22,489 nucleotides of DNA from a virus (Duplodnaviria; Heunggongvirae; Uroviricota; Caudoviricetes): the IMG/VR virus record IMGVR_UViG_2778261450_000009, positions 1 through 22,489 of that record; one strand, given 5' to 3'. Positions 2,899 to 7,150 of the stretch are shown one piece after another. Positions within the stretch are counted from its first letter, which is position 1. Each line of letters begins with the position of its first letter. The notes beneath the pieces are model-generated. The model had not been told where the DNA came from. It made no database searches and saw only the letters and a program-made list of their open reading frames with translations. The translations under genes were made by a program, and so were the position numbers.

Positions 2899-3276
2899 CT
2901 ATCGCTTCAATTGAAAATGTGGGCCGTCTTTAAGCGTCCGCCAGTCCCCGCCCCATTCGATGGCTGTTCCCAGCTCTGCGGCAGCCTGCTTAAATGCCTG
3001 CGCGATTTTCTCGTACAGAGGCCAGTCCCATGACACCTGGCTGCCAACCCAGGCAACAACATCCACCGCATCACCGGTCAGGTGGCGGCTGTTCATGGTC
3101 TGGCTTTTCCCTTCCGCGACCAGCTGTTTCTGGCGTTCTTTCGTGCGCAGCCCTTCCGTAATACCGAAATCAACCTCCGTCAGCTCCAGCGCACGGCGAA
3201 CGACAGCAACCAGCTGTGGTTTAACGCCCTCCAGATTCTTTTCGCTGCGACGACTGAATCTGAATTTACCCGACAT
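2899..3276 (-). CDS. Endolysin, peptidase M15-type (L-alanyl-D-glutamate / D-Ala-D-Ala peptidase fold)
   Basis: Contains SRHLTGDAVDV (SxHxxGxAxD) and a C-terminal GDWRTLKDGPHFQL motif typical of M15 endolysins. The ORF-track start is GTG at 3282; ATG at 3276 has GAGGTG upstream. The upstream gene's stop lies 2 nt before this ATG. Confidence 0.8.
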   Translation of the reverse strand: MSGKFRFSRRSEKNLEGVKPQLVAVVRRALELTEVDFGITEGLRTKERQKQLVAEGKSQTMNSRHLTGDAVDVVAWVGSQVSWDWPLYEKIAQAFKQAAAELGTAIEWGGDWRTLKDGPHFQLKR

Positions 3277-4023: not shown

Positions 4024-4176
4024 TTATTCATATTTGTGCAGTAAAGGCCAGAGAACGACCATCACCATCGCCACCAGCACGCCATCAGCCAGCACCGACA
4101 TCAGCCGTCCGGTAAAATCCACTGCCACTACCAGAAACAGCAGGATGGCAGCCAGCACAAGGCGCGCACTTTTCAC
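4024..4176 (-). CDS. Candidate 50-aa hydrophobic protein, GTG start overlapping the TerB-like stop
   Basis: Not in the ORF track. Hand translation: VKSARLVLAAILLFLVVAVDFTGRLMSVLADGVLVAMVMVVLWPLLHKYE; GGAG 8 nt upstream of the GTG; ends just before the terminator. Confidence 0.3.
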   Translation of the reverse strand: MKSARLVLAAILLFLVVAVDFTGRLMSVLADGVLVAMVMVVLWPLLHKYE

Positions 4177-4598
4177 AGGTACTGCTCCAGCGGCAACTGC
4201 AGCGCCTGCGCAATTTTCTTGAGCTGTGCTTCTTCATCCGGACCAATGCCATCCTGGTCTGCAATATCCAGACACAGGCACAGCACATCAACCGCTTCGG
4301 CGGTTCCTGCCACATCAGCCAGTTCTCGCAAAGCCTGAGCATTCGCACTACGAGGCGATGCTTCATAACGGGCGCGGATATTCGCGCTCATCTGGGCAAT
4401 CTCACCGGAGAACGGCGCAAAGGCAGGAAGTGCTGCAATGGTTTTCTCCAGTACCGCAATTTCTTTCGCGTCACAGGTGTCGTCAGCGTATGCAATGGAA
4501 TACGCGCCCCAGACGGTCGCCTCCACCGCGTCGCGGTTCTCCATTTTCTTCACTTCAGTAATAGCCTTACGGGTTTTCTTTTTGAAAATACCAAACAT
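4173..4598 (-). CDS. TerB-like (tellurite-resistance TerB / DjlA N-terminal type) domain protein, about 141 aa
   Basis: ATG at 4598 with AAGGAAA RBS. Two copies of the TerB-like pattern (IAYADDTCDAKEIAVLEKTIAAL and CLCLDIADQDGIGPDEEAQLKKIAQAL). The ORF-track start at 4751 is an upstream extension without an RBS. Confidence 0.6.
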   Translation of the reverse strand: MFGIFKKKTRKAITEVKKMENRDAVEATVWGAYSIAYADDTCDAKEIAVLEKTIAALPAFAPFSGEIAQMSANIRARYEASPRSANAQALRELADVAGTAEAVDVLCLCLDIADQDGIGPDEEAQLKKIAQALQLPLEQYL

Positions 4599-4796
4599 CG
4601 TGACTTTTCCTTTTAGTGGGTGAGCCTCGCCCCGGGATGAGCAGCCCACAGAGAAAGTCACACTGACCATCCCGTAAGCTCCCCCCCTGAAAGGCTCTGT
4701 GGTTTTTTGATGTGCGCCGGGCGTGGCGCAGATATGAAAAAGGCCACGCACGTGCGCAGCCTGATAATTTTCTGAATCAGCGGAGTGTCAGCTGGT

Positions 4797-5420
4797 TTAC
4801 CCTTTCACTTCTGAAAGGGATTTTTTGCCAAACGTCACTTCATTCATTGACATAAGTATGCTGTCTTTAATGTATTCGCACACTTCATTAATTTTTGCGT
4901 TGGTATCCACATGCGAAAATGTCCTGGCCTGATAACCATCAACCGAAATCGTCATGTTGTCGCCATCAAGTAACAGAATACTCACTGTAATATTCACACT
5001 TACAGACTGGCGGGGATCATCATCAACAACCGTATATAAATTAAAAGTAACCCCATCCTGAAAATCTACCTGCAAATCCTCCGGTTTCTCACAACAACTA
5101 TCATGAGAAAGATAAACATAGGGATGGGAGTTACCGTCAATATCCAGCCATCGTGGTTTCGGCAATGCCAGTGAGTCTTCATAGGTCTTGACCAGCCTTT
5201 TTGCCATATCCCGCAGTCGCTGGATGTACTCCTGTCTGGCCTCCTGAATTTCAGCCTGCTTTTCCCGAATGTCTGCATATGTGATCACAGTCTCAATTCT
5301 CCTGTATACAGAAAAATAAACCATAATAATAGCCAACCGGGAAAAGATGAAAAATGCCATAACAGAACAGGCATTGCGCACGGATAAAAAAATGCCCGTC
5401 ATGAGACGGGCCCAAAGCAT
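4797..5420 (-). CDS. Hypothetical protein, start ambiguous (ATG 5420, ATG 5360 or GTG about 5288)
   Basis: Long ORF with a coiled-coil-like stretch (REKQAEIQEARQEYIQRLRDMAKRL) and an acidic beta-rich C-terminal part. The N-terminal extension is hydrophobic (MAFFIFSRLAIIMVYFSVY); only the GTG start has a clear SD (AGGAGA). Confidence 0.45.
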   Translation of the reverse strand: MLWARLMTGIFLSVRNACSVMAFFIFSRLAIIMVYFSVYRRIETVITYADIREKQAEIQEARQEYIQRLRDMAKRLVKTYEDSLALPKPRWLDIDGNSHPYVYLSHDSCCEKPEDLQVDFQDGVTFNLYTVVDDDPRQSVSVNITVSILLLDGDNMTISVDGYQARTFSHVDTNAKINEVCEYIKDSILMSMNEVTFGKKSLSEVKG

Positions 5421-5470
5421 TCATCGTATAAGAATTAGACAGCGTTTAATTGTATGGTTACTACCAGAAT

Positions 5471-5504
5471 GATTCGTCAGCCTGCAACGTAATTCTGACG
5501 AATC
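5471..5504. repeat. 10-bp inverted repeat GATTCGTCAG / CTGACGAATC with a 14-nt spacer, inside an ORF-poor region
   Basis: Read directly from the sequence. Confidence 0.5.
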
Positions 5505-5732
5505 ACAGACCCCGAAACAGGCAGCGACTCATTCTGATAAAAACCATCCGATGATACACAACGTTAACAATGTAAAAAACAGCACCGAAACTGTAATCAG
5601 TCAGATATTACAGAATGAAGAACAACAAAGGCGCTTGCAAAACCTGTTCTCCGCGAAACTCGCCAGTGCTGAAACGATATGCCTCATTTGTTTACCAGTG
5701 CGGGTAGCAGAAATTACCCTCACACATAAAAT

Positions 5733-5801
5733 GCTGACTTCCGGAATCACACTGCTGACCGGTTATTACTGAATCAACAAACTGATCACCAGGAAGTCAG
5801 C
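5733..5801. repeat. 10-bp inverted repeat GCTGACTTCC / GGAAGTCAGC with a 49-nt spacer
   Basis: Read directly from the sequence. Confidence 0.45.
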
Positions 5802-5840
5802 ACTGACCTTTCCGGTGGTATTAACACCCTGTGAACACAA

Positions 5841-5859
5841 AACGACCACCTTTAGGTCG
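5841..5859 (-). terminator. Putative terminator hairpin about 110 nt downstream of the methyltransferase gene
   Basis: Stem ACGACC / GGTCGT with a 7-nt loop, followed on the minus strand by GTTTTGTGTT. Weaker than the other terminators. Confidence 0.35.
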
Positions 5860-5968
5860 TCACAAATACTAACAATGATTGTGTGGGCATCAAAAATATA
5901 TTTGGTGTTCAGTTTTAAATATGTGTATACATCTGTATCAGAAATATACAACTTATATCATCACTGAA

Positions 5969-7015
5969 TTAAAAATCTTTCGTTATTTCTCTGACCGTCT
6001 GATTAAAACGTTCCTCTTCCAGTTCCACGCCAATCGCCCTGCGTCCCAGCGACAGTGCCGCTTTTATTGTCGACCCCGACCCCATAAAAAAATCTGCGAC
6101 CAAATCGCCTGGACGGCTGCTGGCAGTAATTATCTGACGCAACATATCCGCCGGTTTTTCACAGGGATGCTTACCCGGATAAAACTGCACGGGCTTGTGC
6201 GTCCAGACATCCGTATAAGGAACGACAGCCGATACGGAAAAATAACGCCGCAGTGATTTGTATTCCTCCAGCAGGCTGGCATATTGCCGGTTCAGTTCGC
6301 TGTATGTGCTGACCAGCTGGTGGTGTGGCTGCTCCAGTTCACCGCGCTGGTGTTTTTCTGTCACCACACGTGCAAACAGCGCCTGCAGTTTACTGTAATC
6401 GGCCTCATTCGGTAACTGCCACTGACTGGTACCAAACCAGTGCGAAGCCATGTTTTTCTTTCCGGTGGCTTCTGCTATCTGTTTTGACGTTATCCCCAGT
6501 GATTCGCGCGCATCACGAAAGTAAGAAATCAGCGGGGCCATGACATGCTGCTTAAGCTCGCGCCCCTTTGCTGCATAACCGTCACTTTTGGGCTGGTATG
6601 GCCCCTGATAATGTTCGGCAAACAGAATGCGCTCTGTTGCCGGGAAATACGCCCGCAGGCTTTCCTTGTTGCACCCATTCCAGCGTCCGGACGGCTTCGC
6701 CCAGATAATGTGGTTCAGCACATTAAAGCGTTCACGCATCATGATTTCGATATCAGATGCCAGGCGATGACCACAGAACAGGTAGAGACTTCCGGCAGGT
6801 TTCAGTACCCGCCAGAACTGTGCAAGACACTGGTCCAGCCATTTCAGGTAATCATCGTCCCCCTTCCACTGGTTATCCCAGCCCTCGGGCTTCACTTTAA
6901 AGTATGGCGGGTCTGTGACTATCAGATCGACAGAGTTTTCCGGTAAGGTCCGGATAAATTCCAGGCAATCAGCGTTGATTAACTCACAACTGGATATTTT
7001 TACAGTATTAGCCAT
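5969..7015 (-). CDS. DNA methyltransferase, beta-class (N6-adenine or N4-cytosine), orphan
   Basis: DPPY catalytic motif (LIVTDPPYF) near the N-terminus and an AdoMet-binding FxGxG motif (FFMGSGST) near the C-terminus, which is the beta-class motif order. No adjacent restriction endonuclease recognised. Confidence 0.85.
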   Translation of the reverse strand: MANTVKISSCELINADCLEFIRTLPENSVDLIVTDPPYFKVKPEGWDNQWKGDDDYLKWLDQCLAQFWRVLKPAGSLYLFCGHRLASDIEIMMRERFNVLNHIIWAKPSGRWNGCNKESLRAYFPATERILFAEHYQGPYQPKSDGYAAKGRELKQHVMAPLISYFRDARESLGITSKQIAEATGKKNMASHWFGTSQWQLPNEADYSKLQALFARVVTEKHQRGELEQPHHQLVSTYSELNRQYASLLEEYKSLRRYFSVSAVVPYTDVWTHKPVQFYPGKHPCEKPADMLRQIITASSRPGDLVADFFMGSGSTIKAALSLGRRAIGVELEEERFNQTVREITKDF

Positions 7016-7052
7016 AGATCAATAAGCACTTCTCTGATAGGCTCATACCGCT

Positions 7053-7062
7053 TTTGCGCAAA
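7053..7062. promoter_or_regulatory. Perfect palindrome TTTGCGCAAA about 40 bp upstream of the methyltransferase start
   Basis: Read directly from the sequence. Its position in the intergenic region between a terminator and the methyltransferase gene suggests an operator or promoter-associated site. Confidence 0.3.
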
Positions 7063-7150
7063 GCAGATGGGCCTGAGGTTTGCTTGTGATCCCAACGCAT
7101 GAGCAGATGGCTGGCAGGTGCCGCTAACACCCACCAGCCGCCCATTACCA

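Follow-up and report, generated by a model that had tools for sequence, protein, structure and literature searches.

What does a DNA methyltransferase without a recognizable nuclease partner do for the phage that carries it, and how is such an enzyme held in check? The question is raised by a methyltransferase gene in the late region of a lambdoid phage genome, IMG/VR record IMGVR_UViG_2778261450_000009 (Caudoviricetes), of which we analyzed positions 1 to 22,489 as a whole (22,489 nucleotides, hereafter the window). A sequence-only reading, made without database searches, had described the gene as an orphan beta-class methyltransferase in a self-contained insert, with a palindrome upstream of its start as a candidate operator. 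Our analysis indicates that the gene most likely encodes a functional enzyme of the M.EcoGII family, which would methylate adenines of the progeny DNA non-specifically, under late expression dependent on the antiterminator Q, to evade restriction. The methyltransferase itself adds a further copy to a very common prophage enzyme that has already been characterized and is also sold as a reagent. The only element that is possibly new is the arrangement of a conserved leader and a winged-helix gene around the palindrome.

An intact methyltransferase of the M.EcoGII family

The gene encodes a real, intact beta-class N6/N4 DNA methyltransferase of 348 amino acids (aa; Table 1). Its start is fixed, with an ATG at position 7015 and an in-frame TGA two codons upstream. 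The Pfam family N6_N4_Mtase (PF01555) matched aa 29–340 (E = 3e-44), and the PADLOC model MTase_II matched the protein with E = 2e-154. The DPPY motif was found at aa 35–38 and the FxGxG motif, as FMGSG, at aa 310–314. The motif order, with motif IV first, then the target recognition domain (TRD) and motif I last, places the enzyme in the beta class, as had been proposed from the two motifs. The protein was 99% identical to an annotated RefSeq protein, and its dN/dS against relatives was 0.08–0.12, indicating strong purifying selection.

Over its full length, the protein shared 297 of 345 residues (86%) with M.EcoGII (two gap positions, E = 0), the reference being the sequence in Table S1 of PMC11551740, machine-read from the PDF with visible errors. 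The central region aligned without gaps. About 45 substitutions separate the two enzymes, and the last five to six residues differ because of a mosaic junction at ~5987. The enzyme of phage 1720a-02, which has been named as a carrier of a close M.EcoGII homolog (PMC5778455), was 87% identical to that of the window. The enzymes of those Stx2a-phage records that match the window were 93–94% identical to M.EcoGII.

M.EcoGII and M.EcoGI, from prophages of E. coli O104:H4 C227-11 (Murray et al. 2018, PMC5778455), likewise have the beta-class order, are orphans borne on prophages and are nearly equal in length (349 aa). They occupy the same type of locus, between Q and the stx or lysis genes of lambdoid phages. 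M.EcoGII acts on adenine whatever the surrounding sequence, stays unexpressed in the lysogen and harms the cell when expressed constitutively; it is part of what has been called “a very large family” among E. coli prophages (PMC5778455). Homologs from O111 Shiga toxin-producing E. coli, with ~93% similarity, gave no motif in lysogen methylomes and are listed as “nonspecific” (PMC6602927). For the reconstructed ancestor Anc291 and for SUPREM (Anc284), the supplement of PMC11551740 tabulates rates of DNA and RNA methylation, showing that they are active on both nucleic acids. Judged by eye only, the central region of the window protein looked closer to Anc291 than to M.EcoGII.

The window shows several features that mark the M.EcoGII family: the beta architecture (N-terminal DPPY, central TRD, C-terminal FxGxG), close full-length similarity that includes the central region, a lambdoid prophage location (Q, holins, lysin and terminase are all present) and the orphan state, with no cognate restriction endonuclease. 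By sequence comparison, the methyltransferase is a member of this already characterized family and not a new one. Its 86% identity to M.EcoGII suggests that it, too, methylates adenine independently of context.

Table 1 Features of the methyltransferase locus and their positions in the window.
Feature	Position	Strand	Evidence and remarks
Unknown protein, 163 aa (phrog_5091)	4797..5288	-	Occupies the slot that holds stx in Stx phages
Strong terminator-like hairpin GCCCGTCTCATGACGGGC + ATTTTTTTAT	5394..5411	-	Terminator scan; between the methyltransferase and the 163-aa gene
Weak terminator-like site	5861..5841	-	Terminator scan
DNA methyltransferase, 348 aa	5969..7015	-	Open reading frame (ORF) call; M.EcoGII family, beta class; DPPY 6902-6913, FMGSG 6074-6088
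Leader domain 2, long stem-loop	7016..7092	-	Minimum free energy (MFE) and centroid fold; helices 3-5; nucleotide conservation
Leader domain 1, hairpin AUGGGC-GGCUGGUGGGUG...CACCUGCCAGCC-GCUCAU	7099..7145	-	Fold; helix 2, 5 pairs changed on both sides
Intrinsic-terminator-like hairpin GCCTTC-CTCAGT-GAAGGC with T-run TTTTTAATTT (t2)	7152..7179 (hairpin 7179..7162)	-	Terminator scan
Winged-helix protein, 65 aa (phrog_331)	7166..7363	-	PHROG E = 1.4e-37; Shine-Dalgarno AAGGGAAAAAGACAUG
Initial transcribed block GTTAAGAGTGGTT... (also given as GTTAAGAGTGG...), then hairpin and T-run (t1)	7485..7540	-	Alignments
Late-promoter (PR')-like, sigma-70-like site TTTACG-16 nt-TATGAT	7541..7568	-	Promoter scan
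OmpC-like porin, 387 aa	7812..8975	+	Pfam Porin_1, E = 9.5e-152; annotated ompC in EC11
Antiterminator Q, 127 aa	9156..9539	-	Pfam Phage_antitermQ, E = 5.5e-52; presumed read-through activator

A conserved unit at the head of the late operon

Homology with other phages extends from ~5987, inside the last methyltransferase codons, to ~7543–7568, where its upstream break coincides with the promoter-like site. It spans the terminator at 7151–7179, the 65-aa winged-helix gene, the leader and the promoter-like site, and the methyltransferase is therefore not the self-contained insert it had been taken for. The terminators on both sides and the palindrome, all listed in the sequence-only reading, are indeed present, but they do not bound an insert: the upstream terminator (t2) is internal to the unit, because it overlaps the stop codon of the winged-helix gene. 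By alignment, ~5987–7568 is a conserved mobile unit, composed of a late-promoter-like site, a short terminated leader, the winged-helix gene, a terminator, a 150-nucleotide (nt) leader and the methyltransferase.

This unit is widespread. A megablast search with positions 4600–7600 gave 40 phage records, mostly Stx2-converting phages and phiP27, with matches covering the “DNA methylase” and the small gene upstream of it. Among 5426 complete E. coli genomes, 2203 contained related DNA. A prophage in E. coli EC11 matched the window over the 3-kb query with 99.7% identity. The Stx-converting phages phiP27 (L24), 1720a-02 and those of the Stx2a, Stx2c and Stx2d types had methyltransferases 87–93% identical to that of the window and a near-identical leader. 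They carry tRNA genes and stx downstream, whereas the window has neither (ARAGORN found no tRNA gene in its whole length).

One scan of species-representative genomes recovered 80 methyltransferase loci with 60–88% protein identity, from Escherichia, Salmonella, Citrobacter, Enterobacter, Klebsiella, Photorhabdus, Xenorhabdus, Proteus and Morganella. When the neighbors were clustered over these loci, we found upstream the winged-helix gene (57 loci) and Q (40), and downstream an Rz-type spanin (54), an endolysin (45), Rz1 (29) and two holins (27 and 21). Only Q, the winged-helix gene and the lysis genes were recurrent. The order was Q, winged-helix gene, methyltransferase, optionally tRNAs, stx or another moron gene, then holin, endolysin and spanins, all on one strand. 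It was held in the window and EC11, in phiP27, PPyecE_EH1910 and 1720a-02, in E. coli strain C5 and in the 80 species-level loci.

In phiP27, PPyecE_EH1910, 1720a-02 and strain C5, the unit follows Q and precedes tRNA genes and stx or other moron genes, with a GIY-YIG gene between Q and the unit in phiP27. In C5 and many other loci, Q immediately precedes the winged-helix gene and the methyltransferase, and in many Stx phages the methyltransferase gene is found between Q and stx. Judging by this gene order, the methyltransferase regularly heads the late operon, as its first large gene, in one lambdoid phage lineage, and insertion sites of accessory (moron) genes surround it.

A putative late promoter and its terminators

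The −35 and −10 hexamers of the promoter-like site remain in register in diverged loci, as TTACGA/TAATAT, TTGCGT/TATTGT and TTTACG/TATTGT. The initial transcribed block and the t1 terminator behind them are conserved in Salmonella, Xenorhabdus, Photorhabdus and the Stx phages. In the loci from the three bacterial genera, hexamers, block and terminator hold a common register, and this conservation supports their assignment as late promoter and first terminator. The t2 hairpin was kept in phiP27, PPyecE_EH1910 and 1720a-02, with changes only in the loop, and analogous hairpins occurred in other genera. Terminator-like sites were enriched between positions 3000 and 10000 of the window (21 compared with 8.0 ± 2.8). 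For Stx phages it is established that PR' is active constitutively and that, in lysogens, the resulting transcript is terminated (PMC7547250).

A 12-bp palindrome, TTACGTACGTAA (7556–7567), overlaps the −35 hexamer. Other loci have different dyads at this position, followed by an A-run. This dyad may be a Q-binding or other regulatory element.

The winged-helix gene

The winged-helix gene is called as a longer ORF of 96 aa (to 7456), probably wrongly, the 65-aa form being the one with a Shine-Dalgarno sequence. Of the 76 loci having upstream sequence, 59 contained it ~150 nt ahead of the methyltransferase, and its product was 100% identical in phiP27 and PPyecE_EH1910. In databases the protein is named “TrmB family” or “DprA-like winged helix”. 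An AlphaFold (AF2) model was confident (predicted local distance difference test, pLDDT, 90.6) and had the form of a canonical winged helix. The nearest structures in Foldseek were the DNA-binding domains of IclR and MarR, the N-terminal domains of O-methyltransferases and the SECIS-RNA-binding domain of SelB. By sequence, there were no significant relatives among solved structures (best E = 0.07). A likeness to m6A-sensing domains, such as that of DpnI, was considered and dropped, with no match among the best 50 Foldseek matches listed.

A conserved, folded leader

The 150-nt leader between the stop codon of the winged-helix gene and the methyltransferase ATG is conserved well above expectation, with a mean identity to the window of 73% (44 loci), compared with 38% at four-fold sites of the adjacent gene and 76% for the protein. 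Its conservation about equals that of the protein, with synonymous sites saturated. A conserved upstream ORF, as a cause of this conservation or as a means of translational coupling, was rejected: starts, frames and presence varied, and there were 1-nt indels. The leader (7016–7145) had no Rfam match at the gathering threshold when 6900–7650 was searched (only U1, 9.6 bits, E = 8.7) and was not found in the literature searched. It is apparently undescribed.

The window leader had a predicted MFE of −63.7 kcal/mol (z = −4.07) and folded into two domains. In domain 1 several pairs were changed on both sides, for example CUGUAAAAGUG/CACCUUUACAG and CAGUGAGGAUG/CAUCCCCGCUG in Proteus. The basal helix of domain 2 pairs GGAUCA (7092–7087) with UGAUCU (7021–7016), immediately 5' of the AUG, and the apical hairpin (7048–7069) holds the palindrome. 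No Shine-Dalgarno sequence was found before the methyltransferase AUG.

A five-helix consensus, built from the consensus of single-sequence folds, was tested on an alignment of 48 sequences. Of the alignment cells, 94.7% were paired, against 28–41% with partners slid, a measure that is biased by the way the consensus was built. Ten of 40 pairs were changed on both sides, against 3.2 ± 1.3 in shuffles (none of 500 reached ten) and three to seven in the slid controls. The covariation score was 0.113, falling to 0.02–0.06 when slid. Beyond the changes in helix 2 (Table 1), double-sided changes numbered three in the start-proximal helix 3, two in the inner helix 4 and none in helix 5, and the apical hairpin showed no covariation in this alignment. 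An RNAalifold consensus on the MAFFT alignment was not used; it had only 16 pairs and was dominated by an uninformative invariant helix, UGGGC/GCCCA.

Among the IMG/VR contigs returned by the scan, a 21-nt motif of the leader occurred 121 times. The winged-helix gene adjoined 115 of these sites, and a methyltransferase ATG followed 129–132 nt after the motif in 114. Four contigs (L102, L140, L166 and L185) kept the winged-helix gene and domain 1, but unrelated AT-rich DNA stood in place of domain 2 and the methyltransferase, showing a recombination junction exactly between the two leader domains.

The palindrome TTTGCGCAAA lies at 7053–7062, its near end 37 nt from the methyltransferase ATG. 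Perfect 10-bp palindromes are no rarity in the window, with 28 found against 22.1 ± 4.5 in shuffles, and as a statistically unusual element it was rejected. It is thus not a notable operator by itself, as the sequence-only reading had it, but the apical hairpin of a conserved leader. The dyad persists, always 47–48 nt before the ATG, with a sequence that varies: most Enterobacteriaceae have GCTTTAGCGCTAAAGC, Proteus and Morganella morganii have TGTGCACA, and M. psychrotolerans has TGTCGACA. A second exact copy of TTTGCGCAAA was found at 18055–18064, inside a helix-turn-helix (HTH) gene of the immunity region. We judged this copy coincidental, a repeat being not very unlikely among ~28 palindromes.

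Proposed function and control

Our preferred reading is as follows. A constitutive late promoter (~7568–7541) would start transcripts that, in the lysogen, stop at t1 (~7500) and t2 (7179–7162). After induction, RNA polymerase modified by Q would pass both terminators, and transcription would extend through the winged-helix gene and the 150-nt leader into the methyltransferase and on to the lysis cassette. The enzyme would then methylate adenines of any context in the replicated phage DNA before packaging, and the progeny would enter new hosts already protected against Type I, II and III restriction systems that are sensitive to adenine methylation. Silence in the lysogen would spare the chromosome a toxic methylation. 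For this enzyme we infer both the dependence on Q and the anti-restriction role. The latter is the function proposed in the literature for the M.EcoGII family (PMC5778455), and the sequence-only reading had suggested the same for phage orphan methyltransferases in general.

The correlates of lysogen silence are structural: the gene lies downstream of Q, two terminators stand between it and the promoter-like site, and its start is paired and lacks a Shine-Dalgarno sequence. Tight silencing would agree with the toxicity reported when M.EcoGII is expressed constitutively (PMC5778455). A second layer of control is likely: with the six bases before the AUG paired in the leader and no Shine-Dalgarno sequence, the start suggests an additional translational brake. 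The sequence-only reading had proposed to compare the methylomes of a lysogen and a cured strain in order to define a target motif, and had counted the lack of a motif as a refutation. Such a comparison would most likely show nothing, and the lack of a motif would mislead, because the family prototype is motif-free and silent in the lysogen (PMC5778455; PMC6602927).

Promiscuous adenine methyltransferases of the alpha class from phages (Drozdz et al. 2012, as cited in PMC5778455) and phage Dam-like enzymes such as M.EcoVT2Dam are likewise orphans presumed to counter restriction; their motif order is opposite to that of the window enzyme. The Dam homologs of Stx phages, as in 1720a-02, lie in the early region and recognize GATC, unlike the enzyme studied here.

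How the leader might act is a more tentative matter. It could be a cis-regulatory RNA that gates translation of the toxic methyltransferase, with the 65-aa winged-helix protein perhaps acting on the apical dyad, as RNA or DNA, to switch this gate on or off. This would be a new protein-plus-RNA safety circuit across the Enterobacterales, an idea that we regard as possible and would not yet bet on. Promoter, terminators, winged-helix gene and leader together would be a concrete regulatory architecture for how phages hold a toxic methyltransferase off until late. If it is a true regulatory RNA, the leader would be a new phage cis-regulatory motif and a possible handle to control M.EcoGII-type enzymes in biotechnology.

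Several observations pull the other way. We found no paper showing hypermethylated packaged DNA or better plating on restricting hosts. The 86% identity to M.EcoGII is approximate, given the error-bearing machine-read reference, the true value being perhaps slightly higher, and many of the ~45 differences fall in the central (TRD) region, so that a gain of specificity is possible. The promoter assignment is based on the conservation of the hexamers only. The window has a porin gene between Q and the promoter-like site, which sets it apart from the M.EcoGII locus, and its t1 hairpin is degenerate. As for the leader, covariation is modest, variation is limited, and the structure was derived from the same sequences on which it was tested. 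RNAalifold's own consensus picked a different, invariant long-range helix. Finally, relatives in Xenorhabdus and Photorhabdus have no domain 2, with a shorter leader and a terminator-like hairpin instead.

Alternative explanations

The palindrome could instead be a DNA operator for a dimeric protein, most plausibly the winged-helix protein, which would repress a promoter close to the methyltransferase in a circuit like those of controller proteins, the RNA hairpin being irrelevant. This would explain why the dyad is kept while its sequence differs by clade (GCTTTAGCGCTAAAGC, TTTGCGCAAA, TGTGCACA and TGTCGACA), and why its center stays self-complementary, which a hairpin loop does not need. The neighboring protein has the fold for such a role, with its likeness to the IclR and MarR DNA-binding domains, and the invariant TGT...AAT that closely follows t2 may represent an extended −10 element. 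However, no sigma-70-like promoter was detected there by the scan, and the outer half-sites GCTT/AAGC are spaced by 7, 8 or 9 bp, a variation that a rigid dimer would tolerate poorly. The dyad is nested in helices 3 and 4, which covary, and both the dyad and the complete leader persist in loci without the winged-helix gene. The protein, in addition, is similar in fold to the domain with which SelB binds an RNA hairpin. Taken together, we consider a DNA operator rather unlikely.

The locus also recalls the circuits of controller (C) proteins and C-boxes in Type II restriction-modification systems, with which it shares a small gene of DNA-binding fold upstream of the modification gene, a dyad nearby and the logic of a delayed or limited methyltransferase. 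It differs from them in having a winged helix in place of an Xre-type HTH and no nuclease gene, and its dyad, part of a leader that is transcribed and folded, comes after the small gene. The small gene and the dyad do not match the C-protein pattern of an Xre-type HTH with a C-box dyad upstream of its own gene.

A sequence-specific orphan methyltransferase with a discrete motif, as assumed in the sequence-only reading, protecting against one restriction specificity or serving as an epigenetic regulator, is improbable. Most beta-class matches with solved structures (M.RsrI, CcrM, M.MboIIA and DpnA) are sequence-specific, and ~14% of the residues, many of them central, differ from M.EcoGII. Yet the resemblance to M.RsrI, CcrM, M.MboIIA, DpnA and M.EcoP15I Mod, enzymes with defined sites and mostly with roles in restriction-modification or cell-cycle control, is confined to the core and the motif order: local matches (E = 1e-14 to 1e-25) lay at the motif IV and I regions only, and the central region could not be aligned. 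With M.EcoGII, on the other hand, this region aligned gap-free. The family prototype is non-specific (PMC5778455), and so, by their listing and their motif-free lysogen methylomes, are the ~93%-similar homologs (PMC6602927).

More doubtful still is the idea that host DNA or RNA is the main substrate during lytic growth, with global m6A shutting down or reprogramming the host or modifying late phage mRNAs, and with restriction evasion secondary. M.EcoGII does methylate RNA and DNA:RNA hybrids, and its over-expression slows growth (PMC5778455; supplement of PMC11551740); moreover, the methyltransferase opens the late operon, shortly ahead of the lysis genes. According to Table S3 of PMC11551740, however, the activity of M.EcoGII on RNA is ~100-fold below that on DNA, and such timing would be very late for a host takeover.

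Very improbable is a cryptic restriction-modification or other defense system in which the methyltransferase would serve as the modification component and an unknown neighbor as the nuclease. Unknown genes do flank it, and the PADLOC label reads Type II methyltransferase. No restriction endonuclease gene lies adjacent to it, as would be expected of a Type II system, and the sequence-only reading had recognized none. Searches with Pfam, PHROG and PADLOC matched no nuclease or defense family among its neighbors in the window, and there was no conserved nuclease neighbor across the 80 loci. The sequence-only reading had singled out an ORF at 4797..5420 as a possible linked nuclease. This call is probably too long, because the strong terminator (5411..5394) lies inside it and phrog_5091 starts at 5288; the profile matches end to end from a GTG at that position. 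Structure prediction for the 163-aa product gave a confident, novel-looking alpha+beta fold (helix, 8-stranded sheet, helix) that is not that of a nuclease, and no close fold was found in the PDB. The gene takes the place of stx, a further difference from the M.EcoGII locus. It is seldom found linked to the methyltransferase and does not qualify as a conserved partner. The methyltransferase is an orphan, with no nuclease partner.

Just as improbable is an inactive remnant, a case for which the frameshifted capsid, portal and terminase genes of the EC11 counterpart prophage could be cited, given the full-length ORF, the intact motifs, a dN/dS of ~0.1 and the near-identical RefSeq protein.

Other features of the window

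Downstream of the methyltransferase there are ~550 nt of AT-rich DNA, followed by the 163-aa gene, a TerB-like gene and a DUF3927 gene, two holins and a GH108 lysin. The start sites of the 163-aa gene in RefSeq (5401) and by ORF finder (5420) both take in the internal terminator. The TerB-like gene (phrog_632, “tellurite resistance”) and the DUF3927 gene, at 4173–4751 and neighboring positions, lie between the stx slot and the holins; the pair is also found in PPyecE_EH1910 and strain C5. Many relatives have tRNA genes at the homologous place. At ~5660–5760 (minus strand), the tRNA-Gly of E. coli C5 is replaced by unrelated sequence, with only the tRNA 3' end left.

The porin gene, encoded on the other strand and outside the conserved unit, sits between Q and the promoter-like site, and no porin was present at this position in phiP27, 1720a-02, PPyecE_EH1910 or C5. 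This OmpC/NmpC-like gene (7812–8975) lies in DNA of low G + C content (34–41%). The arrangement resembles that of nmpC next to quuD in the K-12 prophage DLP12.

At 13811–13998 (minus strand), two Rfam families scored above their gathering thresholds, the C4 antisense RNA (80.9 bits) and the Hfq-binding RNA isrK (56.9 bits). Such RNAs are typical of a P1/P7-like antirepressor-control module, here inside a lambdoid prophage.

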